Source: a virus (taxonomy: Duplodnaviria > Heunggongvirae > Uroviricota > Caudoviricetes). Taken from it: 64,000 nt of DNA. The position numbers and the translations under genes are program-made. Shown here in pieces: positions 23 to 62,993 of this stretch (its first letter is position 1; each line of letters opens with the position of its first letter). Under the pieces are notes generated by a model. It was given only the letters and a program-made list of their open reading frames with translations, was not told where the DNA came from and did not search any database. Where the stretch lies: positions 1-64,000 of IMG/VR virus record IMGVR_UViG_3300022660_000063. One strand, given 5' to 3'.

Positions 23-706
23 ACCAGATATAACCAACACTTAAAAGCATCTGAAATATATGCTCAAGAACATAGAAATCTATCATTACTTTATGAGGCA
101 ATTAATAAATATGGTAAGTGTAATTTCGGTGTCGAGACAATTGACACTGCCTCTACTATAGAAGAGTTAAATAAGAAAGAGATTTATTGAATAAAGTTTT
201 ATAGAGACTCATTTGGCAAAGAGTTTTGTTACAATATGGCATCGGGTGGAGATGGTGGGGATACAAACTCTGGCAAGACCCAATCAAAGGAATGGATAGC
301 TAAACGCTTGGCTAGTAGAGAAACTTATGATGTATCAGATGAAACTCGTGAGAAACAAAGACTAGCACATTTAAATCAAGTACCTTGGAATAAAGGCAAG
401 AAAATGTCAGCAGAGTATTGTGAGAAATGTAGAGAACGGAGTAAAGGTAACACTAATCATTTAGGGCATAAAGCAACTGAATTACAGAGAAAGCGTATGA
501 GTGACTCACATAAAGGTCAGATACCTTGGAATAAAGGTTTGAAGGGGTGTATTACCCAGTCAGAAGAAACAAAGAAAAAACGAGCAGATAAATTAAGAGG
601 GACTATTGGTATTAATGATGGCACCAAAAATACTCGAGTACCTAAAGAATACTTAGACAAGTATTTAAATGCAGGATGGTCGATTGGTTGATTAAAGAAA
701 AAATAG
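23..706 (+). CDS. GIY-YIG homing endonuclease, C-terminal part of catalytic domain plus NUMOD3-type DNA-binding repeats; 5' partial, possible frameshift near pos 20-30; two in-frame TGA (188-190, 689-691) read as Trp
   Basis: Translation gives '...LLYEAINKYGKCNFGVETIDTASTIEELNKKEIY[TGA=W]IKFYRDSFGKEFCYNMASGG', matching the I-TevI-like motif 'E.fWI..l....GYNi'. Two 'HxxSEETKxK / IPWNKG' NUMOD3-like repeats follow. ORF 236..691 continues through TGA to TAG at 704-706. Confidence 0.6.
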
Positions 707-1218
707 TATTTAATTCTAATCAAATAAAAGTTAAAGAGAGATTAGAAGAATCTTTAAGTAGCAGCAAACTAAATTTAAGTGAATACAATATAAAAGATAT
801 TTTGATAAATAACCCAGATTTATATAGAATATTATATGATGCTAGAATAGATAAGTATATGATAGGTAATTCATATGATATAATACATAGAGATTTAATA
901 ATAGATGCTTATAAGAAAGGTTATTATGAAAGTCAAAAAGATTTCATAGAAACTTTTGGCGCTATTGATAACTATATTGAAATAGGTTTAGATGGTTATT
1001 ATAATAAAGAGTTAGTAAATGAAACCATTGAACCTTTTATGTATCCGTTAGTATTTATTCCAAAAGGTAAAGAAGAAGAGATAGACATAGAAGCTGCTGA
1101 TGGTTATATAGAATTATTTGAATATGATTTTGGATATATCTTATCAAGAGAGAATGATTTTAGAGGAACAAGTTTGTATGATATATTAGTAGAACTAGTG
1201 TCAACTAAATACTTATAA
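676..1218 (+). CDS. hypothetical protein
   Basis: 180-aa ORF with no recognised motif; start uncertain, overlaps the homing-endonuclease 3' end. Confidence 0.4.
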   Translation: MVDWLIKEKIVFNSNQIKVKERLEESLSSSKLNLSEYNIKDILINNPDLYRILYDARIDKYMIGNSYDIIHRDLIIDAYKKGYYESQKDFIETFGAIDNYIEIGLDGYYNKELVNETIEPFMYPLVFIPKGKEEEIDIEAADGYIELFEYDFGYILSRENDFRGTSLYDILVELVSTKYL

Positions 1219-1249
1219 ACTGTATAATATATTAAGGAGATAAGAAAAG

Positions 1250-1969
1250 ATGATTAGTAATGATAAAAATTATATTAAAGAAATCGTAACAGATTTAGAA
1301 AAGCTTTCTAACAGATGTGATGAGGTAGATGTTAGAAAGAACAATGAAGCAGTTAGAGAAACAGTTGTTGAATTAAAACAAACTTTAAGAGAAAGTAAAA
1401 ATGGTGTAGGATTAGCTGCTCCACAAATTGGTAAAAAAGAAAGAATATTTGTAATCAATTTTAATGGGGATATTAGAGCATTTATCAACCCAATTATAAC
1501 TCAAACAAAAGGTATGAGTATTAATAGAGAGGGATGTTTAAGTTTACCAGGTAAAGAATATTTAGTGCCAAGATACAATCAAATTGAAGTTATGTACCAA
1601 ACTGCATTAGGTAAACCAGAGTCAAGAAGAATGGTTGGTATGGCTGCTTATGTATTCCAACATGAATTAGATCATTTAGAAGGCATCACACTTGCTGATA
1701 TTGGTCTTGAAGTTGGAGAAGATTTTGATAATGCTACTGATGAAGAAAGACAGCAAATTGTTGAGATGTATTTAGAATCTTTAGATTTGAAAAGAAAAGA
1801 ATTACAAAAAGAAATTGAAGAGGACCCAGAGTTAAAACAAACTGCAGATGCAATTGATTTTATGACTAAAGTACAAAAAGGTGAAGTTCAAGTAGAAGTA
1901 AATCAAGTAGATAATGAAACTCATGGACAAATTGCTGATAAAGTAGCTGAAGGGTTAAAAGAAGAATAA
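1250..1969 (+). CDS. def: peptide deformylase with acidic C-terminal extension
   Basis: Motifs GVGLAAPQIG, EGCLSLPG and QHELDHLEG (the three PDF signature motifs); RBS AAGGAG upstream. Confidence 0.85.
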   Translation: MISNDKNYIKEIVTDLEKLSNRCDEVDVRKNNEAVRETVVELKQTLRESKNGVGLAAPQIGKKERIFVINFNGDIRAFINPIITQTKGMSINREGCLSLPGKEYLVPRYNQIEVMYQTALGKPESRRMVGMAAYVFQHELDHLEGITLADIGLEVGEDFDNATDEERQQIVEMYLESLDLKRKELQKEIEEDPELKQTADAIDFMTKVQKGEVQVEVNQVDNETHGQIADKVAEGLKEE

Positions 1970-2502
1970 TGCAGTATTTTATTAGTGATACACATTTCTT
2001 CCATGAAAATGTAATTAGAATTTGTAATAGACCTTTTATAGATTTAGAAAGAATGCATGCGGTTCTAATACATAATTGGAATAAAAAAGTAAAACCTGAA
2101 GATGAGATTTATATATTAGGTGATTTATCTTACAAATGTCCAAATGGTGGTTATCAGCAGTTATTTACTTTAATTAAAAACTTAAATGGTAAGAAACATT
2201 TAATAATAGGCAATCATGATAGTAAATGGTTAAAAAGCTATAATAATCAATGTAAAGAAAAACTGTTTGAATCTATACAAATGTATAAAGATATCTATGA
2301 TGACAAAAATAGAAGAATTATAATGTTCCACTATCCTATAGAAGATTGGGATGGAATGTATAGAGGTAGTTATCATTTATATGGACATGTGCATAATGCA
2401 GATAATGGGTATAAAGTTATTCCAAATAGATTTAATGTTGGCGCAGATGTAATAGATTTTGAACCTAAAACACTTGATGAATTGATAGAAATAAACAAAT
2501 AA
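1969..2502 (+). CDS. calcineurin-like metallophosphoesterase (candidate RNA-end phosphatase/phosphodiesterase)
   Basis: DTHFFH, ILGDLSYK, IIGNHDSKW and YHLYGHVHN motifs (MPE blocks D-x-H, GD, GNHD, GHxH). Confidence 0.7.
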   Translation: MQYFISDTHFFHENVIRICNRPFIDLERMHAVLIHNWNKKVKPEDEIYILGDLSYKCPNGGYQQLFTLIKNLNGKKHLIIGNHDSKWLKSYNNQCKEKLFESIQMYKDIYDDKNRRIIMFHYPIEDWDGMYRGSYHLYGHVHNADNGYKVIPNRFNVGADVIDFEPKTLDELIEINK

Positions 2503-2535
2503 AATTGAAGTTTTAAATACTTCAATTTTTTATTT
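2501..2535 (+). terminator. intrinsic terminator hairpin
   Basis: aaaattgaag / cttcaatttt perfect 10-bp stem, 9-nt loop, followed by a T-run. Confidence 0.5.
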
Positions 2536-2538
2536 AAC

Positions 2539-2550
2539 TGCTAAATTTAT
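2539..2550 (+). promoter_or_regulatory. TGCTAAATTTAT motif (candidate late promoter element), copy 1
   Basis: One of 5 copies of this 12-mer; here 26 nt upstream of the ATG of a fiber-like gene. Confidence 0.4.
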
Positions 2551-2576
2551 TAGATGATAAATCAAGGAGACTTTAA

Positions 2577-3824: not shown

Positions 3825-4411
3825 TGAACAAGATACAATTAAATGGAATAATAAAAAATATAGAATATTCTCATTATATACAAGATATAGAATTTTATAA
3901 AGCTAATCTAATAACTAGAAGAGAAAATGGAAAAGAAGATATTATAAATTTAAAATTTAAAAAGTTTTCAAACCCATATAAAGAAAATCAAGAAATATCT
4001 ATTCTAGGTAATATTAGAACTTTTAATAGACAAGAAGAAGATAGAAATAAAGTAGAATTATTTGTATTTACTTATTTTGATGAAGCAGAAGAAAGTCCTA
4101 ATAATCTCGCATACATAGATGGTAGAATATGTAAAAAGAATAATTTAAGAAAAACATCATCTGGAAAAGATGTTTTAGATTTTATATTAGCAAACAATAT
4201 AGAAAATAATGGGCAAGTATTAAATGTATATTTACCTTGTGTTGCATGAGGGAAGTGTGCTAAGGCATTAAATAAATTAAATGTTGGGGACAAGATTTTA
4301 ATTCAAGGTCAATTACAATCGAGAGAGTATAAAAAGAGATTAACAGAAACTGATTATGAGATACGAGTTTGTCATGAACTGAGTGTAAATACTTTTGAAA
4401 CTTTACAGTAA
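3824..4411 (+). CDS. ssb: single-stranded DNA-binding protein (OB fold) with in-frame TGA=Trp at 4247-4249
   Basis: ORF 3824..4249 continues in frame through TGA: '...LPCVA[W]GKCAKALNKLNVGDKILIQGQLQSREYKKRLTETDYEIRV...'. This matches SSB 'CVtWrrqAEn....kKGs.v.v.GrLqtR.Y', whose Trp is invariant. Confidence 0.8.
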
Positions 4412-4892: not shown

Positions 4893-5095
4893 TGCAAGAA
4901 GAAATAATAAGAGATTTTTATGGTAAAATTATAGGTTATATTCAAACTGATGATAAAGGAAATAAAGTCATAAGAGATTTTTATCGTAGGATACTTGGTA
5001 GATATGATAAAGCATCTAATGTTACAAGGGATTTTTATGGTAGGATAATTGCTAGAGGGGATCAAGCTTCTGGCCTATTGTATAGAGGAAAATAA
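4892..5095 (+). CDS. small protein with three 'RDFYG(K/R)II' repeats
   Basis: Triple internal repeat RDFYGKIIGYI / RDFYRRILGRY / RDFYGRIIARG. Confidence 0.4.
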   Translation: MQEEIIRDFYGKIIGYIQTDDKGNKVIRDFYRRILGRYDKASNVTRDFYGRIIARGDQASGLLYRGK

Positions 5096-5586
5096 TGAGA
5101 TTTTTAAGAGAAAATTCAAACATAGCTTTATATCAAGAAATTTTAAATTTATTTGATAATCAAATAAGCTTTGGTTATTTTGGTGGGGCTGCTTATATAC
5201 TGAAGGATGGTGAATATTTAAATATAGAGGAAGGATCTCACATGTGAGTAGATGATTTTCTTTATGATAATAATTTAATAGAGACTTCACCATTCGAACT
5301 AGACAAACTTATTCTTATAGACGATTTTAATTGCATAAGAGTAAATGATGGAGTATTAACAGATTCAGATCCTTACATAGAATTACCTACGAAATTACCT
5401 ACTTATTCTCAACTAGATACGTTAGAAAATTGGCTGACTAAATATCCTATTATATGAATAGGTATTAGAGGAGATAGAAAAGCTGGTAAGTATTTTAATA
5501 CAAAAGATATTTTACCAGAAGATATTATAAAAAAGATAAAAAGATATTATAGTTCTGGTATATTATACGAGAATTATAAGATATAA
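5095..5586 (+). CDS. hypothetical protein (163 aa), visible only when TGA is read as Trp (two in-frame TGA at 5245 and 5455)
   Basis: ATG at 5095 overlaps the previous stop (TAATG); continuous reading frame to TAA 5584-5586 with RBS-like GAGG upstream. In standard code this is a gene-free gap in an otherwise gapless region. Confidence 0.5.
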
Positions 5587-5680: not shown

Positions 5681-8600
5681 ATGCAAATTATAAAACGAGA
5701 TGGATCAAAGCAAAAATTTGATGAGTATAAAATATGGAAAGCAATATTAGGTTGTTTTGAAGATTGTTGTCCTAAAGGTGAGTATGTTAATGATGGTGTG
5801 ATAACAGAATTAACAAATAAAGTAACACAACAATTAGATAAAAGAAAAAATTATACTGTAGAACAAATTCAAGATATTGTAGAACTAACTTTGATGGAAG
5901 CTAATAAATATGAACAAGCAAAAGCATACATAGAATATAGACAATTACATAAACTAGCTAGAAATAGTTATACTGAACTAATGAATAAAGTTAAAGCTAA
6001 ACTAGAAGCAAAGAATGTAGAAAATTCAAATGCAAACCTAGATGAAAATACTTTCAGTGGAAGAGAGAAAGAAGCATTTGGAACTATATTAAAAGAATAT
6101 GCACTTAATAATTTAGTATCAGAAACTACTAGAAATAATCATATTAATAATGAAATTTATATACATGATTTAGATGCTTATGCAAGTGGTATGCATAATT
6201 GTTTATCAATTCCTTTAGATGATTTATTAGCAAAAGGATTTAAAGTTAAACAGACAGATATAAGACCTGCTGGAACAGTAAATACAGCGATGCAATTGTC
6301 AGCTGTTATAATGCAATTACAAAGTTTATGTCAATTTGGTGGTGTATCATATACTCACTTTGATTGGTCAATGGTCCCTTATGTAAGAAAGAGTTTTTAT
6401 AAACATTATAAAGAAGGATTATATTGGTTCGGTAATGAAAAGTATTTAGAAGGAATTACAAAAGAAACTTCTATAATTGACGAAAAATATAAACTAAATC
6501 AAGATGCTTATGAATATGCTATGAGACAAACTGAAAAAGAAACACATCAAGCAGTTGAAGCATTATATCACAATTTAAATTCATTACAATCAAGAAGTGG
6601 ACAACAACTACCATTTAGCTCTATAAATTATGGAACTTGCACTTTACCAGAAGGTAGAATGATAACAGAAGAATTGTTAAATGTATCTATTGAAGGTTTA
6701 GGAAAATATCATAGAACAAGTATATTCCCTTGTGGTATATTCCAGTGCATGAAAGGTGTTAACAGAAAACCGGGCGATCCAAATTATGACTTATTTAAGT
6801 TAGCATTAAAATCAACTTCAAAGAGATTGTATCCAAATTATGCCTCAGTTGATTGGAGTGGTAATGCAGGTTACGATGTAAATGATCCAAAAACATATTT
6901 TAGTACAATGGGTGCTTTGAGTGGTCATGAACATCTAACAGTTAAAATAGGAAATGAAGAACCTATTGACTTATCTATCAGAGACTTATTTGATTATTGT
7001 AAAACAGATGATTTACAAAATTATAAGAAAACACAGATTTGGTATAACAGAGAAAAATTAAATGAAGAGCCTTTAGGTAGACATTATCAAGAAAAATCTG
7101 GATTACCTAATCTACCAGGTGTTTATTCAATAACTTATTTACCAGAAGATGTCACATATATTGGAAGTTCAAGTTCTATTTCTAGAAGATGCGCTGAGCA
7201 TAAATGTGCTATAGGCAAAACAGGTGGGATTGATGCAGGAATAAATTTTGGGGATATTGATACAGCTAATTATGAATTTAAAGTATTAGAAATAACTGAA
7301 GATTATAAAGAAGCTGAAAACCTTTATATTCAAAAGAATGCAAATATAAATCCTAGAGGAACAGATAAGAAATATTATAAGTTAATTACTCAAAAATCTA
7401 GGCATAGAGTATATGATAGACCTGTATTTAAAGTTGATTTGAGTAAAAAACAAGAATTGATTGATTTATCTGAATTTGATATTAAAGTATTAGATAGAGA
7501 TAATAAATGGGTAAAGATCAAACATATCTTTAAAAATGATAAATTAAATACTCCGTATATGATGCATATCTATTACAAAGAATACGATAAAGAATATTGT
7601 TTGTCTTGTACTGAAGATCACCCTCTATGGACAGGAGATAAATTTACAAGAGCAGATCAATTAAAAATAGGTGATAAACTTTATAGAGCTGATAATTTAG
7701 AGTTAGAAATAACTGATATATGTTGGCATTGGGAAGCAGTTGATAGCTACGATATAGGTACTGAAACTGGTTCATTTATAGGTTCAGATATTATAATGCA
7801 TAACTGTAGAACTGCAAATGGTTGGGATATTAATGGTTTAAAACAACAAAAAGATGGTAGAGGAAATATTGCACCTACTACTATTATATTACCAACAATA
7901 GCAATGAAATCTAAAGAATGTACAAGAGCTTCAGAAGAATCAGATATAGATGTATTTATGAGATTACTTGAATGTAAAATAAATGAAGCAAAAGACTCTT
8001 TGATAGAAAGATTTGAGCATATCTGTAGCCAATCACCTAAATCAGCCCCATTTATGTATGAAAATAACACAATGGCTGGTTATATTCCAGAAGAAGGAAT
8101 TAGGAGTGCTTTAAAACATGGAACATTAGTTATAGGTCAATTAGGTCTTGCTGAATGTTTACAAATATTAATTGGAAAAGACCATACTACAAAAGAAGGT
8201 ATGGAACTTGCTAAAAAGATAGAACAATTATTTAAAGATAAATGTGCTTATTTTAAAGAACAATATAAATTAAATTTTGGTGTTTATTATACTCCTGCAG
8301 AATCTTTATGTAAAACTGCTATGACTAAATTTAAAGAAAAATATGGTATTATTCCAAATATATCTGATAGAAAATATTTTACTAATTCAATGCATGTTCC
8401 AGTATACCATAACATAAATGCTTTTGATAAAATAGATATTGAAAGTCAATTAACAGGTTATTCTTCAGCTGGGTGTATTACTTATGTAGAATTAGATTCA
8501 TCTTCAATTCATAATATAGAAGCTATTGAAAAATTAGTTAATTATGCTATGGATAAAGATATACCTTACTTTGCTATAAACGTACCAAATGATGTTTGTA

Positions 8601-8776
8601 TGGACTGCGGACATCAAGAAGAAATGAATGATAAATGTCCAGAATGTGGTTCAGATAATATTGAAAGATTAAGAAGAGTTACAGGATATGTTTCTACAGA
8701 TTATCATAATTTTAATGAAGGTAAGATAGCGGAAGTAGAAGATAGAGTCAAACACACAGGAGTTCCTATTGAATAA
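5681..8776 (+). CDS. nrdD: anaerobic (class III) ribonucleoside-triphosphate reductase, interrupted by an in-frame intein
   Basis: 1031 aa (about 300 aa longer than typical). C-terminal glycyl-radical motif 'RRVTGYVSTDY' and Cys4 Zn site 'CMDCGH...CPECG'; internal intein/endonuclease segment (see next feature). Confidence 0.9.
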   Translation: MQIIKRDGSKQKFDEYKIWKAILGCFEDCCPKGEYVNDGVITELTNKVTQQLDKRKNYTVEQIQDIVELTLMEANKYEQAKAYIEYRQLHKLARNSYTELMNKVKAKLEAKNVENSNANLDENTFSGREKEAFGTILKEYALNNLVSETTRNNHINNEIYIHDLDAYASGMHNCLSIPLDDLLAKGFKVKQTDIRPAGTVNTAMQLSAVIMQLQSLCQFGGVSYTHFDWSMVPYVRKSFYKHYKEGLYWFGNEKYLEGITKETSIIDEKYKLNQDAYEYAMRQTEKETHQAVEALYHNLNSLQSRSGQQLPFSSINYGTCTLPEGRMITEELLNVSIEGLGKYHRTSIFPCGIFQCMKGVNRKPGDPNYDLFKLALKSTSKRLYPNYASVDWSGNAGYDVNDPKTYFSTMGALSGHEHLTVKIGNEEPIDLSIRDLFDYCKTDDLQNYKKTQIWYNREKLNEEPLGRHYQEKSGLPNLPGVYSITYLPEDVTYIGSSSSISRRCAEHKCAIGKTGGIDAGINFGDIDTANYEFKVLEITEDYKEAENLYIQKNANINPRGTDKKYYKLITQKSRHRVYDRPVFKVDLSKKQELIDLSEFDIKVLDRDNKWVKIKHIFKNDKLNTPYMMHIYYKEYDKEYCLSCTEDHPLWTGDKFTRADQLKIGDKLYRADNLELEITDICWHWEAVDSYDIGTETGSFIGSDIIMHNCRTANGWDINGLKQQKDGRGNIAPTTIILPTIAMKSKECTRASEESDIDVFMRLLECKINEAKDSLIERFEHICSQSPKSAPFMYENNTMAGYIPEEGIRSALKHGTLVIGQLGLAECLQILIGKDHTTKEGMELAKKIEQLFKDKCAYFKEQYKLNFGVYYTPAESLCKTAMTKFKEKYGIIPNISDRKYFTNSMHVPVYHNINAFDKIDIESQLTGYSSAGCITYVELDSSSIHNIEAIEKLVNYAMDKDIPYFAINVPNDVCMDCGHQEEMNDKCPECGSDNIERLRRVTGYVSTDYHNFNEGKIAEVEDRVKHTGVPIE
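6914..7804 (+). mobile_element. intein (about 297 aa) inside NrdD carrying a GIY-YIG endonuclease domain
   Basis: Block A-like 'ALSGHEHLTVKIGNEEPIDLSIRDL' and block B-like 'TEDHPLWTGDKFTRADQLKIGDKL'. Block F/G 'SYDIGTETGSFIGSDIIMHN' followed by Cys+1 'CRTANGW'. In between lies 'GVYSITYLPEDVTYIGSSSSISRRCAEHK' (GIY-YIG). N-terminal boundary is approximate (Ala1 at 6914 or Ser1 at 6920). Confidence 0.6.
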
Positions 8777-8813
8777 AATATTAAATTGATTTATTAAATC
8801 AATCTTAGCAGGA

Positions 8814-9398
8814 ATGTTTATAGGGATAGGCTGTTTAGCCTATCTATCATCTCCTGATAAAATAGTGGGTGCTTTCTTATTTACTGTAGGATTATTTGTT
8901 ATACTTACTTTTAAATTAAATTTATTCACAGGTAAGATTTGTTATGTTATAGAAAAGAAAAATTATTTAGAAGTAGTTATAACTTTACTTGGTAATTTTA
9001 TAGGAACATTATTACTAGCTTTAATGTGTAGAGCTACACGGTTAATTAATCTAATAGAGTATGCAAATGCAATATGTGAAATCAAATTAAGTGATTCCTA
9101 TATAAGTTTATTTATACTCGGAATTTTATGTAACATATTAATTTATATAGCGGTAGAAGGATACAATAAGTTCAAAGATATAAGAGGTATTTTATCTCTT
9201 TTCTTTGGAGTTATTATCTTTGTAGTTATAGGATTAGAACACTGTATTGCAGACATGTTTTACTTTAATTTTACTTTTATATATTCTTGAGAGGTATTAT
9301 TAAGATTATTAATTATAGTTTTAGGAAACGGTATAGGTGGAATAAGTATAAGATATTTATTTAGGAGACGTAATGAAATTTTTAAAGGAAGAGATTAA
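8814..9398 (+). CDS. formate/nitrite transporter (FNT, FocA/NirC-like) channel, compact 6-TM form; in-frame TGA=Trp at 9288-9290
   Basis: FNT signatures 'GAFLFTVGLFVILTFKLNLFTG', 'GILCNILIYIAV', 'IGLEHCIADMFYF' (FEHsIANMF) and, after the TGA, 'LGNGIGG' (LGNIVGG). Start uncertain: in-frame upstream sequence '..NWFIKSILAG' continues the TM1 pattern. Confidence 0.75.
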
Positions 9399-9945
9399 TA
9401 ATTTATACCACGCATATCATGGATCTAATGCAGAATTCGACAGATTTGAGCAGCAATTCATTGGAGCTCATGCATTAGGGCATGGATTTGGCTTTTACTT
9501 TACAGACGAAATTAATCAAGCTAAAAGTTATGGTGATTATGTTATAGAAGCAGATTTATTAATTAGAAAACCATTTTCAGATGACAGTATAACTATAGCT
9601 AAAAATCAAGTTAAAAATTATATTAGAAAATATGTAGATCCTATTGGAAAAGATTATTTATCTAACTATGGTTGGTATGAAGATGAAGGTTATGAAAATG
9701 TTTTAAATAATTGTGTAGAATCTTTATTTGCATATAACAATAGTGATAATGATATTATTAGTGAAATATTGTTTAATGTACAAAATAAATATACTGATGA
9801 AGCTTATGATGCTATATTTGAAATATTTGGAAAAGATGGAATTATATATCAAGGCTTTTCTGGCTGGCAAGGCGAACCTTTAACAAATTATTTAGTTTAT
9901 AGCAATTCACAAATATTAAATAAGAAAAAAATTAAGGTGAGATAA
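9373..9945 (+). CDS. PARP-like ADP-ribosyltransferase domain protein (H-Y-x class; catalytic Glu apparently replaced)
   Basis: 'LYHAYHGSNAEF....GHGFGFYFTDEINQAKSYG....TNYLVYSNSQI' parallels the PARP catalytic signature (HGS ... G.GiYFA ... KS.gY ... [E]YiVY) seen in ORF 21008..22177, but with Asn in place of Glu. Confidence 0.5.
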   Translation: MKFLKEEINNLYHAYHGSNAEFDRFEQQFIGAHALGHGFGFYFTDEINQAKSYGDYVIEADLLIRKPFSDDSITIAKNQVKNYIRKYVDPIGKDYLSNYGWYEDEGYENVLNNCVESLFAYNNSDNDIISEILFNVQNKYTDEAYDAIFEIFGKDGIIYQGFSGWQGEPLTNYLVYSNSQILNKKKIKVR

Positions 9946-11260: not shown

Positions 11261-11689
11261 ATGAAAAAACCTAGAGTGCTAGATGCTTATTTAAAAGAAT
11301 ATCAAAGAAAATTAAAAGAAGCTAGAGCTAATAAAAAAAGAAATAAAGATAAGCTATTTACTTTAACCGAAACTTCAATACAAACTATATTGCAAAATAA
11401 TATAAAAATTAAATATCCAGAGATTTCATTTAAAGTAGATAAATCTATATCCACTAATAGTTATTACATAATGTTCTTTTATGGTGATAGATATGTAACA
11501 ACAAGAATTAGTGATCATGAATCAAGAGTAGGGGCATTAGGAATCGTAGTTACACCTGATACAACTAAGAAAGAAGTTATTCAAGTTTTAGAGCAGCGCG
11601 TCATTGATTTAAAGTATAAATATAAAGCACATTTATTTAATAAATTTAAAGAAATAGAAAAGGAAAGAATATGAAAAAACAATACATAA
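11261..11689 (+). CDS. hypothetical basic protein; annotated TGA (11672) readable as Trp, extending 5 codons
   Basis: RBS AAGGAGG; ORF ends at TGA, then continues W-K-N-N-T-TAA. Confidence 0.4.
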
Positions 11690-16816: not shown

Positions 16817-18088
16817 ATGGAGATAAAATTACCAAAATATGTTGAATTACTAATAAACATGTTAAATGAAAATGGTTATGCAGCATATGCAGTTGGTGGC
16901 GCTATTAGAGATTCTATATTAGGTATTGAACCAAAAGATTGGGATATAGCAACAAGTGCTTTACCTGCTGAAACAAAGAAACTATTTGAAGATAATAGTT
17001 TTCACAAGAGTGATATGGATATTTATTTTAAAGTTATTCCAACAGGAGAAAAATATGGCACTATGACTATTGAAGTTATAGAAAAATATAAATTAAATAA
17101 ATATGAACATCTTGCAGGTATTTATGAAATAACCACATTTAGATATGATAGCGATTACACTGATGGTAGAAGACCAAATAATGTAACTTTTGGTGAATCT
17201 ATTATAGATGATTTAGATAGAAGAGATTTTACTATGAATGCTATTGCTTATAACCCATTAGTAGGTATAGTAGACCCACATAATGGTGTTGAAGATATTA
17301 AAAATAAAATAGTTAAAGCAGTAGGAGACCCACAGGTTAGAATAAAAGAAGATGCTTTGAGAATTTTAAGGGGCATTAGATTTGCTTGTAAGTATAATTT
17401 TGAGTTAGAGAATGCAACAAGCAATGTTATAGCGGGTACTGGTAGTCTCTTAAAGAATGTATCAAAAGAAAGAATTACTGAAGAAGTTAAGAAGATATTA
17501 GAATATTCAAAAGGTAATTCTGAAACTTTAAATTCAACAATAGAAACACTAGCAGAGATATTTGAGATACCTCAAAACAAAGTAAGTAAATGGGGTAGTA
17601 ACCAGGTCATCATAGATATAGATAATGACAACCCACCTATGTTAAAGTTGTATTCAATATTGAATAAGTATAAGTCAATGATAGATGCAGAAATTTGGAT
17701 GAGGTTATATAAATATAGTAACCAACAAATCAAAGAGGTTATTAGCTATTATAAGATGTCAAAGTTTATGGAAGATGTTCAGCAACAAGATATTGTCCTA
17801 ACAATCAAGCAACTATTCAATAAATTTGAACATGCATACGTATGCAAGTATTTGGGTATTTACACAAAAATAGAAGGAATAGATTTGTCAGAAATTACAA
17901 GTCAACCATATAGATTACAAGACTTGGCAATAGATGGGCACTTTCTTCAATCTACATTTGATATAAGTGGTGAGAAGATAGGTAAGGTTCTTAATTTCTT
18001 ATTAGGCAAAGTTATGGAGAATTCCCAACTAAACACAATAGAAACTTTATCTGAAATTACAAGGAGATACTTAAATGGAGAAAATTAA
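16817..18088 (+). CDS. cca: CCA-adding tRNA nucleotidyltransferase / poly(A) polymerase family
   Basis: Head-domain motifs 'AVGGAIRDSILG', 'DWDIAT' and 'RRDFTMNAIAY'. Confidence 0.8.
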   Translation: MEIKLPKYVELLINMLNENGYAAYAVGGAIRDSILGIEPKDWDIATSALPAETKKLFEDNSFHKSDMDIYFKVIPTGEKYGTMTIEVIEKYKLNKYEHLAGIYEITTFRYDSDYTDGRRPNNVTFGESIIDDLDRRDFTMNAIAYNPLVGIVDPHNGVEDIKNKIVKAVGDPQVRIKEDALRILRGIRFACKYNFELENATSNVIAGTGSLLKNVSKERITEEVKKILEYSKGNSETLNSTIETLAEIFEIPQNKVSKWGSNQVIIDIDNDNPPMLKLYSILNKYKSMIDAEIWMRLYKYSNQQIKEVISYYKMSKFMEDVQQQDIVLTIKQLFNKFEHAYVCKYLGIYTKIEGIDLSEITSQPYRLQDLAIDGHFLQSTFDISGEKIGKVLNFLLGKVMENSQLNTIETLSEITRRYLNGEN

Positions 18089-27998: not shown

Positions 27999-28081
27999 AT
28001 ATTTAGATAAAGTAGAGAAGAATGGTTCTTTCAAGAAAAATTATTTTCTTGAAAAAGTAGAATTATATGAGGAGGAAGAAA

Positions 28082-34035: not shown

Positions 34036-34703
34036 TGACAGATTTGGAAATGAAGAAATTAGCAGAATGTACAAGAGAAGAATTAATTGATATAATTATC
34101 AGTATGGATAAACAATTAGAATCAAATAATTCTTTAAAAGAAAGTATTGCAAGAGGAATTAAAGAAGGTTTAACACCACCTAATACTTTAGATATAAAAG
34201 ATGGGCAAATTTATGTGAAAAGCAATAATGATTGGTCTTTCCAAGATTGTAGTTATGCAGTCACTTCTCAATTAGATGAATTTAAAAGACTTGCAAAAGA
34301 AGCTCAAGAAATAAATAAAGAAATAGATTTTGTTATTAAAGATAAATTTTTAAATTATAAATTTATTAGCGGTAAAGATGATAGATTTAAAATAGGTAAG
34401 TTAGAAGTCTTAGACCCATTTAATGTAACTGACACAGAAATTAATGCACGAAAAGAAACATTAAAAAATTTAAAGTTATTAATGTCTGCTTACAAATTAG
34501 GTTTTGATGATTTTGCAAAAAATAACTATTTTATTGCTTATACTCATTTCAAAGAAATAATAAAAGAATCTAAATTAAAAGAGAAACATAAAGAAGATAT
34601 TTTGAATAAAGCTTGGAAAGATTATGCTAATTATTGGGATCTTTATAATACGCCTATATATGTAAATATTGATACCACAAAAGAGGGTTCTGTGAATGAA
34701 TAA
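34035..34703 (+). CDS. hypothetical protein
   Basis: 222 aa with RBS. Confidence 0.4.
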   Translation: MTDLEMKKLAECTREELIDIIISMDKQLESNNSLKESIARGIKEGLTPPNTLDIKDGQIYVKSNNDWSFQDCSYAVTSQLDEFKRLAKEAQEINKEIDFVIKDKFLNYKFISGKDDRFKIGKLEVLDPFNVTDTEINARKETLKNLKLLMSAYKLGFDDFAKNNYFIAYTHFKEIIKESKLKEKHKEDILNKAWKDYANYWDLYNTPIYVNIDTTKEGSVNE

Positions 34704-34929
34704 AGACCAAGAATTGCTAATGAAGATAATGTTTGATAAACAACTTTCAAAAAGAGATGATAAAACTATTTTAGAAAGCATTAAAACTGAGATAAAATCA
34801 GAAGAATTAAAATTAGAAGATACTTCGTACAATTCTGCTTTTTCAGCTGGTTGGATACTCGGTTCTATCCATACATATCATAAAGTAGAAGAAATATTGG
34901 ATAAATGATTGAAAGGTTTATAAAAAGAT
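34696..34929 (+). CDS. hypothetical small protein; TGA at 34906 readable as Trp, extending 7 codons
   Basis: ORF continues ...DKW LKGL then TAA. Confidence 0.35.
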
Positions 34930-41964: not shown

Positions 41965-43689
41965 ATGATATTGAATGAAAATATAGGACTTGCTCCAGTA
42001 GAGAAAGAAGATCATGGTGAAGTTGATCAAACTTATGCAGCTGCTATCAGAGATATAGAAAAAGCAGAAAAAAAGAAAGCAGAGTTCACTAAAATACAAG
42101 CAGAACCTAAACATGATGAAAAACCAAAAAATCCTAAAATGGTTAGTGGTGCAAAGAAAATGCATTTAGATGAAAGTTTGTTTGAAGATATTTTAGATGA
42201 AAAGAAAGAGAAAACTAAAGAAGATATATTAGATGATTTATATGATGAATTACGTAAAGCTAAATATCTAGTTAACGCAGATCCAATTGGCTATAGGATA
42301 GGAAAGAGACAACCTGAAGGTCAGATACAACTTAGTAGAAAAGATAAATCATACGAATTTATAAAAGATGAAAAAGATCTTGATGATGCTAAAGCAATCG
42401 TAGATAAGTATGGCTTTAAGTATTATGTTAAATCAACATTAGGTATACCTTCTCTTTATATAGACACTGAAAGCTTAGAAGAAGAAATATATAGCACTTC
42501 TGGCGCAGCCGGCAAAGAAATGTCTTTTGATATAAAAGATGATGGAACTATCGTAATATATGATGGTGATAAAATAGTTAAGCAAAGCAAAACAAATCCA
42601 ACATATGCTAAACAAGTTTTAAAAGATTTGGGGTTTAAAGAAAAAGAAATTATTAAAGAAGATATTAATAATTTAGAAAAAGAATTTACTATTCATTATA
42701 ATAGAGAGGGATTTGAATATGGTGGATATGGTGCAGTAAGAGTTAAAGCTTCTAATGAAAAAGAAGCTAAAGAGAAATTCTTAGATGAGAAACCCGATAA
42801 AGATATTGAAATAACTTCTGTAAGACCAACTGAAAATGAAGATATTAGAAAAGGTATCAGATTGTTAGAAGATACTGAGATAGTTAAAGAATCTTTTGAA
42901 GACTTCTATGCTCAATTTGATATTAGACCTGAAAGAAAAATAAAAGAAGTTTACGCAGAAATATCCCCAGAAGAATTTCAATTAGATAAAATACACCCAA
43001 CAAAAACTATCGCTGATATATGGTCAGAAATGCAATCAGGAGAAGATTTTTATAGAATAGCTTCAGAAGATGGAGAAGGCTTCGATAGCGCAGTAAGAGA
43101 AGGCATATTTGAAATTATATCTAAAGCTTTTAAAATCCCATATGATACAGTTTATTTAACTTGGAGAAATGGTGGCAAGTTAGAAGAATCTTTTGAAGAT
43201 GAACAAAAAGCGGCAGAAGAAAGAGCGAGAGAAGAGACTATTAAAAAAATGGTTAAAGAAAGAGAAGAAGGTTCTCTCGGTGACAGAATTGAAGCTGCAG
43301 AATTAGAACAAGAATTAAAAGAAGATTATACTGATGGAACTACTATCGAGGATGGGGGTGAAATAACACCAGATTCAATTCAACCAGGTCCAGAAGCAGG
43401 ATTAGCAGCTGAATTAACTAAACTAATTAAAGAAGAATGAGACGCAATTCAAGATTATAATGATGCTATAGTAGCAGCAGAATTAGAAGGTTATCATGAT
43501 ATTGCAAAAGTATTTAAAGATATAGTTAATGAAGAAATGAACCATGTAGGCATGCTTGAAACTTCTTTAAGCACAATATCTCCTAATACCCAGACTATAG
43601 AAGACGGAGAAGCAGAAGCTTCTGATATATTAAATGAAATACCTCACGAAGTTATGGATGAAGACCCTGAAGAAGGTATGCATTATTAA
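41965..43689 (+). CDS. large acidic protein (574 aa) with in-frame TGA=Trp at 43438; C-terminal ferritin-like 'EExxH' segment
   Basis: ORF 41965..43440 continues through TGA: '...LIKEE[W]DAIQDYNDAIVAAELEGYHDIAKVFKDIVNEEMNHVGMLE...' to TAA 43687-43689. Confidence 0.5.
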
Positions 43690-44191: not shown

Positions 44192-45058
44192 ATGTCATAT
44201 AATTTATTACTTGATACAAAATTTGAAAACGATCAATGAAAATTTATAAACTGCAGATATGAAAATGGCAAACTTACTTCTAGTTCAAAAATATTTGGTA
44301 TTGAACAAGAATTGATTTTACCAGATCTAACAAAATTATATTTCAGATGTAATTATATGACTGCTTCGAAAGATATCACAGAAGTTAAGATAGGCATACT
44401 TAATAAAAATACTTTGGATATAGATAAACGTTTCCCAAAATATTTAAAATGGAATAATATATCAGTCATAGATTACAGCAAGCAAGAGAAAATAAAAGTA
44501 CATCTAATATTTGAGTCTACAGAAGATATCAACGAAGTATATATAAAAGAACCAATATTAGTAGATTTAAATTATTTACATAAATCTACATGGTTAAAAA
44601 TAATACTAGATAGAACTATAAATTATCTACCTGGCTATTCATATAAAAATGAGTATAAAGAATTACAATTAACTGAAAATAATACTGATTTTAATGTGCT
44701 AAATAGAGAACAAGCTAAAATAGGTTTAATAATTAAAGAAAGTGAAAATAAAGAAGTTACTTTAAATGCTAAATTTATTAGTAATAGGTATTATCTCGTT
44801 AAACTAGATTTTGAAGAAATAAATCAATTAGGTAACCTTTATTTCAAATATGGTTTTTTGAAATCAACTAGAATAAAAGATCAAATATATTTAGTGTTTA
44901 AAGCTAGAGAAAATGAAGACTTAAAATTAATAATTGAACCTAATTCAGAATTATCTTACTGGTTAAATATAAAACATCTGATGATAATTGAGATAACGAA
45001 ATTAAAATTATTAAGAGAAGATATAATAAATCTTCCATATATTGAAGGAGACGCATAA
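44192..45058 (+). CDS. hypothetical protein (288 aa) with in-frame TGA=Trp at 44237
   Basis: AAGGAG RBS then ATG 44192; 'MSYNLLLDTKFENDQ[W]KFINCRY...' joins in frame to track ORF 44312..45058. Confidence 0.5.
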
Positions 45059-45927
45059 TGCAATTTAAAAAATTATTAGAAGATATTAACGACGGGTGGG
45101 AGTTAGAAGATAACTATGATGTTGATTTAAATGTATTAGATGACATGAATAGTTTTATCTATGAGATAAGAAATACTATAAGAGGCGCATATACTAAAGC
45201 AACTACTTATAAAGAATTAGCTACATATATTAGAAATGATCTAATACAGCCGTTAGAATACTTAGCTCAAGATATTGAAAATATAAAAGAAAATGATATA
45301 GATGAATCATTAAAAGAATCTAACGAGGAAATAGAAGATATATCTTATTTAATATTCGATAGTACATACGGCAATAAAGAAGTAGAAGAATTAGATGTTT
45401 CATCCCTTAGTGAAGTAGATCATTATTATAAACTAATTAAAACAGTCAATGAAGCTGAAAAATTTAATTATCACTCAGATTACTGAGGTTATGATGAAGA
45501 TTATCAAGAACAAAATACTGAATTAATAAAGGCTTTAAGTCCTTTTATAAATAAAACTGTTGAAATTGAATATGAAGATGGTTATATAAGAGGTAAACTT
45601 TTAGGTATAGCGATTGATAGACAATATAATAGTATAAGTCACACTAAGGTTATCTTAGATACAATCGAAGAAGTAGCAGAAGAATCTCTAAATGAAACAG
45701 CTGAATTAGATAAAAAAGTATCTATATTAAGAAAGAAAATAAGTATGCTAGATGATAAGGGCTATAAAGAAGGATATGATAAAGTAATAATATCTAACAA
45801 TATAAAAGATACCATTGAAAATCATTTAACAAGATATAAAGATGAGTTAGCAAAAATTTATGATAGTGAAGAATTCTTCGAAGAAGATAAATTAGATTTA
45901 GATGAAGCGCATGGGTTAAAGGAGTAA
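45058..45927 (+). CDS. hypothetical acidic protein (289 aa) with in-frame TGA=Trp at 45484
   Basis: Track ORFs 45058..45486 and 45745..45927 are in the same frame and continuous, with no other stop: '...NYHSDY[W]GYDEDYQEQ...'. Confidence 0.55.
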
Positions 45928-58534: not shown

Positions 58535-58547
58535 TAAGGAGAAAATA

Positions 58548-59705: not shown

Positions 59706-59706
59706 A

Positions 59707-59931
59707 ATGGGACAAGTTATAGTAAAAAGTCCATCTTCTGGAAGTACCTTTAATCTTATGTCATGTGTTTCAATGGGAGATATGACATTTAAAGATGCTG
59801 TTCAATTTTATGATATGACTTTTAAATTATATAAAACAAATTACACGATAAATGAACAGGATTATTCAGAAGAAAATTTAGAAGAATTATCCAGTATTTT
59901 ATCTACATTAGCATTTGGAGGAAATAATTAA
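59707..59931 (+). CDS. small hypothetical protein
   Basis: GGGAGG RBS then ATG 59707. Confidence 0.35.
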   Translation: MGQVIVKSPSSGSTFNLMSCVSMGDMTFKDAVQFYDMTFKLYKTNYTINEQDYSEENLEELSSILSTLAFGGNN

Positions 59932-59932
59932 T

Positions 59933-61243
59933 ATGACAATGACAGCAAGTCAACTTTTTAAAGTTACATCAATTTTAGAAACTGCAAGACAAGATGGCGT
60001 TAAGAATTTAAAAGCAAAAGGTATAACTATTCCAGATAGTTCAAGTATTCCTGCTATTATTGGTAATATAAACAATATAACAGGTCAAACTATCATAAAT
60101 ACTACGGAATTAAAAGCAACTGGGGATAGAATAATTACAGCAGCAGACCTACCTAATACAACTTTTACTTTGTACAAAGATGATAGTTTACTACAAACAC
60201 TAACAAATGCTGATGAAGCTTATGTGGTAGCGTTTTCAGTTACTGATGATGGTGAGTATATAATAAAAGCAACCAGAGATTCTGAAGAAAAATGGCAAAA
60301 TAGTATCAATGTACAAGGTGTTGGTCAATACAAATGCACTATGAAATACTATAATGAAGTAACTAAATCTGCAATAGGTAATTACATACCAACTTATAAA
60401 TCTTTAAAATATACATGGGAAGAATTGCAGGAAATTTCTGAAGCAGGATTTGGAGAATATGTATTTGAATTTGATGGATTTGAATACATGCAAACTAATT
60501 TTATGGCTAAAGGAGCAACAAGTGAATATAGCAGAGCTTATTTAGTGCATATAGATGAAGAAAATAACTTAATATTTTGTTATTATAATTTCAATAGCAC
60601 ATATAAAATGTTTAATACATCTGGAACAAATAGTAATGGTATATCTTGGATGGGATGCATACCAAGAACAAATTCATTACCAGCAGGCGCTACTCAATAC
60701 ATATATGATTGGACAGTTACTGATTCAACAAATGGTACATATTATAAATACGAAATAGAAGCTTCTACATTTGTTCCTGTATTATTACCAGATGAGTACA
60801 ATAATGAAACAAAATATTACAAGAAAACAGAAATTGCTGAAGATGGTGTGTTCTTAGCTTCATTAAAAGAACAATTAGGAACAGTTAGCCCAAGATTAAA
60901 AAATATCAAAACATGGCAAGGTTGTGGTGCTGGGGTTACAGTGAGCACAGATGATTTAATATTAACAACTCAAGATTATATGTGGCTACCTAGTGATAGC
61001 AATATATTTGGTGACACTAAGAGATTTGATGATTACTCTAAATTCTGGCTTGAAGGAGAAACATTTAAAGCATTTAAGAATTATAACGAGATATTATTTA
61101 GATTCTCAAGTAGTGCTAGATGGCTTAGATCCCCTTACGTTCCCTCTTCTTCGAACTATTTCTGTACTTGGTACATCCATGGTTATTCGTCCAACACCAA
61201 TATGACGACTAGTTTTTCTGTTCCTCTCTGCTTTTCAATCTAA
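59933..61243 (+). CDS. DGR target (variable) protein, receptor-binding candidate; VR occupies the last about 35 codons
   Basis: C-terminus '...SPYVPSSSNYFCTWYIHGYSSNTNMTTSFSVPLCFSI' corresponds codon-for-codon to TR 'YPYVNSSSNNFCNWNNNGYSNNNNMTNSNYVPL' (AAY codons in TR). Confidence 0.75.
   Translation: MTMTASQLFKVTSILETARQDGVKNLKAKGITIPDSSSIPAIIGNINNITGQTIINTTELKATGDRIITAADLPNTTFTLYKDDSLLQTLTNADEAYVVAFSVTDDGEYIIKATRDSEEKWQNSINVQGVGQYKCTMKYYNEVTKSAIGNYIPTYKSLKYTWEELQEISEAGFGEYVFEFDGFEYMQTNFMAKGATSEYSRAYLVHIDEENNLIFCYYNFNSTYKMFNTSGTNSNGISWMGCIPRTNSLPAGATQYIYDWTVTDSTNGTYYKYEIEASTFVPVLLPDEYNNETKYYKKTEIAEDGVFLASLKEQLGTVSPRLKNIKTWQGCGAGVTVSTDDLILTTQDYMWLPSDSNIFGDTKRFDDYSKFWLEGETFKAFKNYNEILFRFSSSARWLRSPYVPSSSNYFCTWYIHGYSSNTNMTTSFSVPLCFSI
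61132..61236 (+). repeat. DGR variable repeat (VR)
   Basis: About 105 bp; 17 mismatches to TR, every one at a TR adenine. Confidence 0.8.
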
Positions 61244-61256
61244 TAATCTAAATAAT

Positions 61257-61278
61257 CTGTTCGCCGAAAGGTGAACAG
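61257..61278 (+). promoter_or_regulatory. hairpin with GAAA tetraloop immediately 3' of VR (DGR target-recognition stem-loop)
   Basis: ctgttcgcc-gaaa-ggtgaacag: 9-bp stem (one G-T pair). Confidence 0.6.
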
Positions 61279-61303
61279 TGAGTATATAAAAGGAAATTTT
61301 AAC

Positions 61304-61699
61304 ATGGTTCCATCGTATATGAGAACATTAAGTAAAACTCAATATGTTTATGAAAGTGTTATGCTTAGAAAATTAGTAGCAAGCACTATTGTTAATAAAT
61401 TCTCTAAAAAATATACTTTCTATGGGCTACAATCAACATTTAAATTAATAGATAGAGTTATGCAATGTTGCGTACTTGCTAATCAATGTGATTTGACAAC
61501 AAGTTTTGAAAAACGAAGAGAATTATTGACAGAAGCTCTACACACTTTAAATTTATTCTCTATTGAATTTGAATGCATATTGGAGTATAATAATACTATC
61601 ACAGATGGAATGCTTAATAAGATATTTGAAAAAACTGACTACCTAGAAAAATTAATTAAAGGTGTTATAAACTCGGATAAGAAACGAGTTTCAAAATAA
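61304..61699 (+). CDS. avd: DGR accessory variability determinant (Avd-like, 131 aa)
   Basis: Small basic helical ORF between VR and TR, the canonical position and size for Avd; AAGGA RBS. Confidence 0.6.
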   Translation: MVPSYMRTLSKTQYVYESVMLRKLVASTIVNKFSKKYTFYGLQSTFKLIDRVMQCCVLANQCDLTTSFEKRRELLTEALHTLNLFSIEFECILEYNNTITDGMLNKIFEKTDYLEKLIKGVINSDKKRVSK

Positions 61700-61721
61700 C
61701 ATTGGTGTGCGGTTGATTATA

Positions 61722-61826
61722 CCCTTACGTTAACTCTTCTTCGAACAATTTCTGTAATTGGAACAACAATGGTTATTCGAACAACAACAATATGACGAAT
61801 AGTAATTATGTTCCTCTCTGATTTTA
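61722..61826 (+). repeat. DGR template repeat (TR)
   Basis: Non-coding copy of VR, rich in AAC/AAT. Confidence 0.8.
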
Positions 61827-61979
61827 CTTAAATAATGCCAGACATAGTAGATATTTATTGAAACCGGCTAAATTAATAAAAGGAACCGCACTTCCATAGC
61901 AATTAAAAGCTAAAAATAAAAACCTCCTAATATATTTTACTCAAGATTAGGAGTAACTAATATTACATAGGAGATTATA

Positions 61980-62993
61980 TTGAAAAATAAAACTTTTAAA
62001 GAAGTTTTTACATATAAAAATTTATTGGTTTGTGCTAATCTATGCTTTAGAAATGTTAGATGAAAGCAAAGCATCCAAAATTTTGAAATTCAAAAGCATA
62101 GATTAGTAAATAGAATATTTAGACAATTGCATGCTGGGAGTTACAAATCACCTGGATACTTTGAATTCACTAAAAGCTGCAGAGGAAGAACTAGAAATAT
62201 AAAAGCTGCACATATTAGTGAAAGAATTGTACAAAAATGCTTATGTAGATATTACTTAAACAATCTACTCGGAAGATCCTTAATATATGATAATGGAGCT
62301 ACAATAAATGGTAAAGGCTATATATTTACTTTAGATAGATTATTTGTACATTTAAATAAATACTATAAAAGATATCATACTAATGAAGGTTATATATTAA
62401 AGATAGATTTTAGCAAATATTTTGATAATATAGATCATAATATTCTATTAAGTAAAGCAAGAAATTATATAAAAGACGATAAGATATATAATCTGTATAA
62501 ACATTTTATAGAGAAAGCCAGTAGAGAGAAAGGAATAGCATTAGGAAGCGAAATTTCGCAGATAAATTCTTTGTTCTATGTTAATGAGTTAGATCATTTA
62601 ATCAAAGAAAAATTACATATTAAATTTTATGGTAGATATGTAGATGATTGTTATCTGATATGCAGTAGTAAAGAAGAATTAAAAAACTGTCTGCGAGTAA
62701 TATACGAAGTTTGTAATAAATTAAAAATAATTATAAATAAAAATAAGACAACTATCAGTAAATTAAAACAATTTACTTGGTTAAAAATTCAATTCCGTTT
62801 ACAATCTAATGGTAAAATAACAAATAAAAATTCATATAAAACTCGAAAGAACTTATTTAGAAAAGAGAAATACCTTAGATCAAAATATGGGATAAATAGC
62901 AACCAATACACCAATTATAAAGGTTCATTTGAAGGTTATATAAAGGAGTATATACATGTTCAAGGTAAAAGACGAAATAAAAATACCTTTTAA
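61980..62993 (+). CDS. DGR reverse transcriptase (337 aa; TTG start, in-frame TGA=Trp at 62061)
   Basis: RT motifs 'ILKIDFSKYFDNIDHNIL' (A/2), 'GIALGSEISQINSLFYVNELD' (B') and 'YGRYVDDCYLI' (C, YxDD). The N-terminal 'FKEVFTYKNLLVCANLCFRNVR[W]KQ' DGR-RT-like region is reached only by reading through the TGA; AGGAG sits 7 nt upstream of TTG 61980. Confidence 0.8.

Follow-up and report, generated by a model that had tools for sequence, protein, structure and literature searches.

Can a phage whose genes are repeatedly interrupted by TGA read this stop codon as tryptophan, and if so, by which means? This question is raised by a 64,000-nucleotide stretch of Caudoviricetes DNA, positions 1 to 64,000 of the IMG/VR record IMGVR_UViG_3300022660_000063 (hereafter the window). 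Here we report that TGA is very probably translated as Trp in this phage, and that a phage-encoded tRNA with the anticodon UCA and an additional hairpin would be the decoding molecule. The window matches parts of ~154.4-kb metagenomic contigs from several JGI and ENA samples with 99.9-100% identity and is hence a piece of a large, ~154-kb phage genome, of which window and flanks together cover ~84 kb. The upstream sequence comes from another assembly, L003. The GC content of the window is 27.8%, and every credible gene within the 64 kb lies on the plus strand.

In-frame TGA codons in ten phage genes

We counted 13 in-frame TGA codons in 10 genes of the plus strand, located at positions 188, 689, 4247, 5245, 5455, 8787, 9288, 11672, 34906, 43438, 44237, 45484, and 62061 (Table 1). 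The original prediction, made from the letters alone, had claimed at least 14 and had named all of these positions except 8787; each of the twelve indeed lies in the frame of a plus-strand open reading frame (ORF). The added site 8787 is codon 7 of the formate/nitrite transporter (FNT) gene if this gene starts at TTG 8769. The TGA at 34693 was discarded as a sense codon because it stands just upstream of the start ATG 34696 with its Shine-Dalgarno (SD) sequence, outside the gene, and those at 61714 and 61819 because they lie inside the non-coding template repeat of the diversity-generating retroelement (DGR). Since all 13 TGA codons are kept in every other fetched assembly of the phage, they are not sequencing errors. 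With 13 TGA compared to ~211 TGG codons, TGA accounts for 5.8% of the Trp codons, close to the roughly 5% estimated before.

When TGA is read through, the 84 non-overlapping genes end in TAA (69) or TAG (15) and never in TGA, and no TGA stop codon was found in the 8.7-kb and 9-kb flanks either. Within the genes we see ~13 TGA in frame and not a single TAA or TAG, while off-frame TGA number 261 and 1180. In the control, the standard-code phage TR-TP2 with similar GC content, 10 of 101 long ORFs end in TGA. The seven ORFs of the window that end in TGA under table 11 all continue in frame. Based on an off-frame stop density of 0.094 per codon, the frames that stay open past the TGA for 35, 53, 82, and 146 codons would do so by chance with p ~0.03, 0.005, 3e-4, and 5e-7, respectively. 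That every TGA-terminated ORF extends cleanly, as had been stated, is too strong a claim, as three extensions of four codons are uninformative (p ~0.6 each). Additionally, coding coverage of the window is 93.8% with table 4 and 90.9% with table 11. SD sequences precede the upstream starts of the DGR reverse transcriptase (RT; TTG 61980), of the gene for a protein of 288 amino acids (aa; ATG 44192), of FNT (TTG 8769), and of the 163-aa gene, and are missing at the table-11 starts, for example at TTG 44312 of the 288-aa gene.

The public gene calls split or truncate all 10 genes, the number that the original prediction had expected to be mis-annotated by the standard code. The GIY-YIG homing endonuclease is intact in three other assemblies (L003, L004, and L005) with 251 aa if TGA is taken as Trp, and is called as two pieces of 79 aa and 151 aa; only a 50-aa fragment is called of the 163-aa gene, and the RT is truncated to 288 aa. 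Compared to three other assemblies, one G is missing from the window at ~20-22 (GTGTT-AGACC vs GTGTTGAGACC), which shifts the frame of the endonuclease N-terminus in the window copy only. We rejected the idea that this gene is a pseudogene, because only one base is deleted and the deletion is confined to the window copy.

Three of the sites, 689, 11672, and 34906, behave differently. Each stands five codons from the end of its gene, with exactly four sense codons between it and a TAA or TAG; the length of the extension is thus identical in all three genes. This terminal zone holds 3 of 13 TGA compared to 5 of 210 TGG codons (Fisher p = 0.007). The three had been regarded as Trp sites with short C-terminal extensions. 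They look rather like former stops, and a four-codon extension is indistinguishable from a real stop. Judged by their position, they are probably former terminators with a nearby backup stop and not Trp codons by descent.

Table 1. Positions of the TGA-containing genes and of further features of the window named in the text
Feature	Position	Strand	Details
GIY-YIG/NUMOD3 homing endonuclease	1..706	+	5' end 49 nt before window; TGA 188-190, 689-691
SSB, 195 aa	3824..4411	+	TGA 4247-4249 (codon 142); 53-codon extension, p ~0.005
163-aa gene, no function assigned	5095..5586	+	TGA 5245-5247, 5455-5457; SD (GAGG) before ATG 5095
FNT, 209 aa	8769..9398	+	TGA 8787-8789, 9288-9290; GGAG before TTG 8769
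142-aa gene	11261..11689	+	TGA 11672-11674, 5 codons from end
tRNA nucleotidyltransferase (CCA-adding enzyme)	16817..18088	+	phrog_2244, E 8e-54
RNA ligase	28067-29236
Polynucleotide-kinase-like protein	33055-34035
Small gene	34696..34923	+	TGA 34906-34908, 5 codons from end; start ATG 34696 with SD
574-aa gene	41965..43689	+	TGA 43438-43440 (codon 492); 82-codon extension, p ~3e-4
288-aa gene	44192..45058	+	TGA 44237-44239 (codon 16); strong SD (AAGGAG) before ATG 44192
289-aa gene	45058..45927	+	TGA 45484-45486 (codon 143); 146-codon extension, p ~5e-7
DGR cassette	59915-62993	+	target gene 59915-61243, variable repeat (VR) 61129-61235 at its end, small accessory gene 61271-61699, template repeat (TR) 61719-61825, RT 61980-62993
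DGR RT, 337 aa	61980..62993	+	TGA 62061-62063 (codon 28); GGAG before TTG 61980

Which amino acid does TGA then encode? Homology extends on both sides of the TGA in SSB, FNT, the RT, the GIY-YIG endonuclease, the 163-aa gene, and the 289-aa gene. At the RT site 62061 we found Trp in 116 of 116 aligned homologs, in the motif GVRWKxSxQ, and at the GIY-YIG site 188 in 95 of 120, followed by Tyr (11) and Phe (5). Both sites were settled by these large homolog sets: the alignment with the bRT structure (8ub7) starts from RT residue 8 and has a gap beside the TGA column, and that with the I-TevI structure ended before the column. The SSB site 4247 faces Trp (5odp/5odn) or Phe in SSBs of the PDB, whose alignments are the only column evidence here, and the Pfam SSB match (residues 97-184) crosses the TGA. 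For FNT, the Pfam match Form_Nir_trans covers residues 4-194 (E 1.6e-31) and the PDB alignments cover residues 7-192, with the LGNGIGG motif recovered past the second TGA. The expected rejoining of SSB, GIY-YIG, FNT, and the RT N-terminus is supported by homology matches that span the TGA. In FNT the match crosses both TGAs, but the columns are Tyr and variable, not Trp. Three distant homologs of the 163-aa gene align over both of its TGAs (residues 31-160), with Ser/Phe/Ile and Tyr/Phe in the columns. The original prediction had placed the TGAs at conserved Trp positions; this is right for the RT, GIY-YIG, SSB (Trp or Phe), and site 45484, which is TGG in a relative, but not for 5245, 5455, 8787, and 9288, and for 43438 and 44237 we found no homologs.

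A weak ferritin/rubrerythrin-like match in the 574-aa gene (residues 485-543) spans its TGA as well. The search with tblastn for the 574-, 288-, and 289-aa proteins in GenBank phages gave no match, and in IMG/VR we found no loci related to SSB or to the 289-aa protein. A concatenated homolog query of the five TGA genes without known function, among them the 163-, 142-, 288-, and 289-aa genes, yielded three homologs, all of the 163-aa gene.

The relative just mentioned, L046 (ENA ERZ28614111 scaffold_141), is a 148.9-kb contig that is syntenic with the window at ~45-64 kb. The window TGA 45484 corresponds to TGG in L046, where the homolog of the 289-aa protein is 70% identical over residues 96-206; TGA 62061 corresponds to TGA; and nine TGG codons of the window correspond to TGA in L046. 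Trp, Phe, or Tyr stands opposite 16 of the 19 aligned L046 TGAs. Because the codons exchange in both directions, the comparison indicates that TGA and TGG are synonymous and freely exchanged in this lineage. The extent of recoding is very different. In 23 genes of L046 we counted 47 TGA and 21 TGG (69% TGA) and no TGA stops, while the same tail-like module of the window (48-64 kb) has 1 TGA and 52 TGG. With ~6% TGA in the window compared to 69% in L046, the lineage spans light to heavy recoding. The TGAs of the window are found in SSB, the homing endonuclease, FNT, the DGR RT, and small genes of unknown function, rather than mainly in structural or lysis genes. Taken together, the stop usage, the homolog columns, and the exchange with L046 argue strongly that TGA is read as Trp in this phage.

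A tRNA(UCA) with a second hairpin

A search of the genome for a tRNA(UCA), which had been proposed as a check, was successful. We found a tRNA of 94 nt with the anticodon UCA and Trp identity elements at L003 4632-4725, ending ~4.0 kb before window position 1 in the same genome. It stands apart from an array of 11 tRNAs ~10 kb upstream of the window (L003 141-1352) that includes a tRNA-Trp(CCA). All array tRNAs encode CCA, while the tRNA(UCA) gene does not. The 64-kb window itself holds no tRNA genes and no Rfam families, and a promoter/terminator scan around the tRNA gave background level.

ARAGORN labels the molecule "SeC" because of the anticodon only. Its stems are a 7-bp acceptor, a 5-bp T-stem, and a D-stem of 3-4 bp, and the best Rfam family is tRNA (38 bits), for which Infernal takes the UCA hairpin for the anticodon arm and the rest for an insert in the variable region. 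With these stems, this Rfam assignment, and the Trp columns, we rejected it as tRNA-Sec. The acceptor reads A1-U72, G2-C71, G3-C70, G4-C69, and G5-C68 with G73; A1-U72, G2-G5:C68-C71, and G73 are the elements listed for the TrpRS of Bacillus subtilis (PMC9976931). The first anticodon-type hairpin has the loop CUUCAAA, which presents UCA. Its variable arm (AUAGGU-CUCCAAA-ACCUAU) nearly duplicates the anticodon stem-loop of a tRNA-Trp, down to the CCA anticodon.

Pattern scans of IMG/VR returned the same five-arm design in ~30 large phage contigs (members in L007-L036), which represent 20 distinct sequences. When the second loop was left free in the pattern, the second hairpin was present in 20 of 23 hits, always with U-CCA in a 7-nt loop, and the other three were ordinary tRNA(UCA). 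When the first loop was left free, UCA was present in all 19 true members. Among the 20 distinct members, 98.8% of the cells are paired and 20 of 25 pairs show compensatory changes, a value that none of 500 shuffles reached. These changes occur in all five helices, in 4 of 5 pairs of the first hairpin and in 3 of 4 of the second, and minimum-energy folds give the same five arms. These results show selection on the second hairpin as well as on its CCA loop. For many of the family loci, coding density rises considerably under table 4, and the tRNA(UCA) often adjoins an ordinary tRNA-Trp(CCA). One copy lies in a contig of a "Bacilli bacterium" metagenome-assembled genome (MAG). Neither full-text searches, with incomplete coverage of the literature, nor the recoding papers gave a published description of a tRNA with two such hairpins, and the architecture may be a new variant.

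Other phages of this tRNA family carry further RNAs: a ROOL RNA (L020 8971-9618), a partial OLE RNA (L021 7338-7576), and tmRNAs (L009, L011, L017, L018, and L021). Two of them have a tRNA with the amber anticodon CUA (L014 138-214 and L016 3898-3974).

We propose the following course of events. TGA would be translated as Trp and the phage would no longer rely on it to end genes; ~10 TGG codons for Trp would have become TGA by drift, and at three former TGA stops a backup TAA or TAG would now follow four codons on. The phage tRNA(UCA), with its Bacillus-type tRNA-Trp body, would supply the decoding, its first hairpin (CUUCAAA) reading UGA. It would be charged with Trp by the host TrpRS and would compete with release factor 2 (RF2) at UGA. 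Because its gene lacks CCA, this end would be added after transcription, for which the phage's own CCA-adding enzyme forms the context. The second hairpin, which occupies the position of the variable arm and shows a Trp anticodon loop (U-CCA), may help the host TrpRS to recognise the tRNA. The phage would stand at a light stage of recoding, while its close relative is heavily recoded.

The role of the second hairpin can be put forward only tentatively. It is conceivable, though on balance doubtful, that it acts as a natural "pseudo-anticodon" arm that shows CCA to the host TrpRS, or that the tRNA is a two-fold switch reading both UGA and UGG. TyrRS, the closest relative of TrpRS, approaches its tRNA from the variable-arm side, so that a contact between the second arm and TrpRS is imaginable. 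TrpRS normally reads the anticodon (PMC9976931), and 13 phage tRNA(UCA) analysed in E. coli extract all inserted Trp (PMC12636597). There is also an engineered precedent: a variable arm copying the anticodon arm raised charging by HisRS fused to the matching anticodon-binding domain (Mukai 2020, PMC7590224). Apart from the pseudo-anticodon, the second arm might serve in a two-state tRNA (UGA and UGG), shield the molecule from a host nuclease, or be a determinant for SerRS, the last being contradicted by the Trp columns.

Does the phage bring its own synthetase or release factor? Scans for the motifs of TrpRS (HIGH/KMSKS) and of release factors (GGQ) found none in the window, the flanks (together ~84 of 154 kb), or the tRNA loci. 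The RF2-related gene for which a search had been suggested was accordingly not found by the GGQ scan in this part of the genome.

Host code and rival explanations

Several points weigh against Trp as the meaning of TGA and against the tRNA(UCA) as its decoder. Distant homologs show residues other than Trp, aromatic or variable, at sites 5245, 5455, 8787, and 9288. The accumulation in late genes that is described for recoded phages is not seen for these TGAs, and SSB, which is needed early, has one. The tRNA copy of the window phage is the most deviant of its family, with 38 bits compared to 48-60, the mismatches G7.A66 and C10.A25, and no encoded CCA; this irregularity may go with the light TGA use of the phage. 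A long variable arm together with G73 is recognised by SerRS too (PMC5389517). The ~70 kb outside the scans could hold a phage TrpRS or RF1. Finally, all the support for TGA as Trp stands at the level of sequence.

Regarding the host, the original prediction had favoured a recoded phage over a Mollicutes phage. The Mycoplasma phage MAV1 (AF074945; 29% GC) uses 50 TGA and 15 TGG, that is 77% TGA among the Trp codons. Because TGA makes up only 5.8% in the window, the phage does not appear adapted to a code-4 host, and the recoded phage is the better, though inferred, reading. The low TGA share, the phage's own tRNA(UCA), the DNA match to Thomasclavelia phages, and the OLE and ROOL RNAs in other phages of the tRNA family point indirectly to a standard-code host, which is likely a member of the Bacillota. 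Most likely, the phage is thus recoded relative to its host.

The best surviving alternative is that the phage infects a code-4 bacterium, a Mycoplasma-type member of the Bacilli, and simply follows the code of its host. This would explain the lack of TGA terminators in the window and the 69% TGA of L046, which is near the value of a Mycoplasma phage, and the only match of the tRNA in a bacterial genome is indeed the unclassified "Bacilli bacterium" MAG. However, a TGA share of just 5.8% at 27.8% GC fits poorly with the 77% of MAV1 at 29% GC, and the phage brings its own tRNA(UCA) and tRNA-Trp(CCA). The closest DNA match falls in phages that infect Thomasclavelia, which uses the standard code, and the published TGA-to-W gut phages were assigned to standard-code Firmicutes (10.1101/2021.08.26.457843). 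We consider a code-4 host unlikely.

UGA is leaky to Trp in Bacillus. This favours a second alternative, in which TGA is still a stop and the genes are made at a low level through read-through by the ordinary tRNA-Trp(CCA), or give truncated products; the over-represented C-terminal TGAs (3/13 vs 5/210 TGG, p = 0.007) could act as stops as well. Against this stand the dedicated tRNA(UCA) encoded nearby and the fact that truncation would destroy the OB-fold of SSB, the N-terminus of the RT, and the C-terminus of FNT. Moreover, the 47 sense TGAs in 23 genes of L046 are too many to be maintained by leaky read-through. This explanation is improbable.

Even less probable is a meaning of TGA other than Trp: a long-armed tRNA(UCA) charged by SerRS, TGA as Gly (code 25), or TGA as selenocysteine (Sec). 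The "SeC" label of ARAGORN and the SerRS determinants named above (long variable arm and G73, PMC5389517) would fit, but the homolog columns are Trp or aromatic and never dominated by Ser, Gly, or Cys. The acceptor/T branch of the tRNA is 7/5, most members show a D-arm of class-I type, the acceptor stem is that of a tRNA-Trp, and the best Rfam family is tRNA. Gly was rejected because no column is dominated by it and it faces only 1 of the 19 aligned L046 TGAs; selenocysteine was rejected because the columns are Trp and the tRNA lacks the architecture of tRNA-Sec (8/5 branch, 6-bp D-stem).

That the TGAs stem from faulty assembly or from mutation in pseudogenes under decay, a notion for which the single-base deletion in the window copy of the GIY-YIG gene is a real example, is refuted by the data, together with the truncated pseudogenes that the original prediction had itself considered, as the same 13 TGAs are common to all other assemblies from several samples, the genes are interrupted by TGA alone and never by TAA or TAG, which arise more easily in AT-rich DNA, and the frames stay open for up to 146 codons.

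Gene content and place among recoded phages

The remaining genes agree with a large phage that infects a low-GC Gram-positive host. The window encodes an anaerobic ribonucleotide reductase with its activase, DNA ligase, RNA ligase, a polynucleotide-kinase-like protein, and a CCA-adding enzyme, as well as peptide deformylase, leucine-rich-repeat proteins, and a DGR. With the CCA-adding enzyme, the RNA ligase, the polynucleotide-kinase-like protein, and the 11-tRNA array, the phage has a set for tRNA maintenance. The host-like accessory genes comprise peptide deformylase (1250-1969), the formate/nitrite transporter (8769-9398), an ART-PolyVal domain protein (9373-9945), a Cu/Zn superoxide-dismutase-like domain (38567-40036), an inorganic pyrophosphatase (48195-48722), and leucine-rich-repeat proteins of the BspA type (52785-54134).

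Among GenBank phages, the sole match at the nucleotide level is NrdD of two Thomasclavelia phages (77%). One Thomasclavelia phage, TR-TP2, was rejected as a usable relative, because it has only NrdD, NrdG, and ThyX in common with the window. NrdD of the window (5681-8776) contains an in-frame insertion of ~290 aa at ~6911-7792 that matches a GIY-YIG catalytic domain above the cut-off (27.9 bits) and gives weak Hint/intein-splicing matches; these matches make an intein that carries a GIY-YIG endonuclease probable. The nrdD gene of TR-TP2 is interrupted at the same place, there by an HNH endonuclease gene. The cassette near the end of the window is a complete diversity-generating retroelement, with a reverse transcriptase and a 107-nt template/variable pair of 85% identity whose mismatches lie almost solely at template adenines.

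How does this phage compare to known systems? TGA-to-W gut phages that infect standard-code Firmicutes have been described by Borges et al. as the Jade, Sapphire, and Agate clades, and a route was proposed in which TGA stops are lost at low GC, a suppressor tRNA is gained, and sense TGA then spreads (10.1101/2021.08.26.457843). In that study, suppressor tRNAs were detectable in only 35% of the TGA-recoded phages, and their charging was named as an open question. Like these code-4 phages, the window phage is a large low-GC phage that has purged TGA as a stop, has in-frame TGA at Trp positions, and encodes a suppressor tRNA; close relatives differ strongly in their degree of recoding, which fits the proposed route. 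It differs from them in that TGA makes up just ~6% of the Trp codons and lies in accessory and early-type genes and not in the structural/lysis block. No TrpRS or RF1 was found in the scanned 84 kb of its genome, and a tRNA with an extra CCA-loop hairpin is not described in the paper. TGA-to-Trp recoding in phages of standard-code Firmicutes is already established, so that the recoding of the window will not surprise a specialist; the five-arm tRNA(UCA) with a CCA arm may be undescribed, as it appears from the literature covered.

With MAV1, the phage has in common TGA as Trp, only TAA and TAG as terminators, and a GC content of ~29%. MAV1 has 50 TGA and 15 TGG, compared to ~13 and 211 in the window, and needs no tRNA of its own. 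The phage tRNA-Trp(UCA) suppressors tested in vitro (PMC12636597) are phage-borne too, with the anticodon UCA and G73, but a second hairpin is not mentioned in that work. A five-arm cloverleaf with a long variable arm is also seen in class II tRNAs and in the engineered tRNAs of Mukai (PMC7590224); in contrast to the latter, the tRNA(UCA) is natural, has a tRNA-Trp body and a class-I D-arm, and would need to function with a host TrpRS in its unmodified form. In many of the phage loci, a tRNA-Trp(CCA) directly follows the tRNA(UCA). This recalls Mycoplasma capricolum, where duplication has given tandem genes for tRNA-Trp(UCA) and tRNA-Trp(CCA). In the phages, however, the duplication is also found inside one tRNA, with two anticodon-type hairpins in a single cloverleaf.

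In summary, standard-code gene calling breaks 10 genes of the window, and annotation of this phage and its relatives should use table 4. The window phage (~6% TGA) and L046 (69%) represent two stages of one lineage and offer a natural series for the change of a codon from stop to sense. The two-hairpin tRNA provides a concrete hypothesis for how suppressor tRNAs are charged in standard-code hosts, and it is a possible natural part for genetic-code engineering. If the pseudo-anticodon or the two-fold reading were true, it would be an undescribed route by which a phage imposes a code change on a standard-code host without a synthetase of its own.

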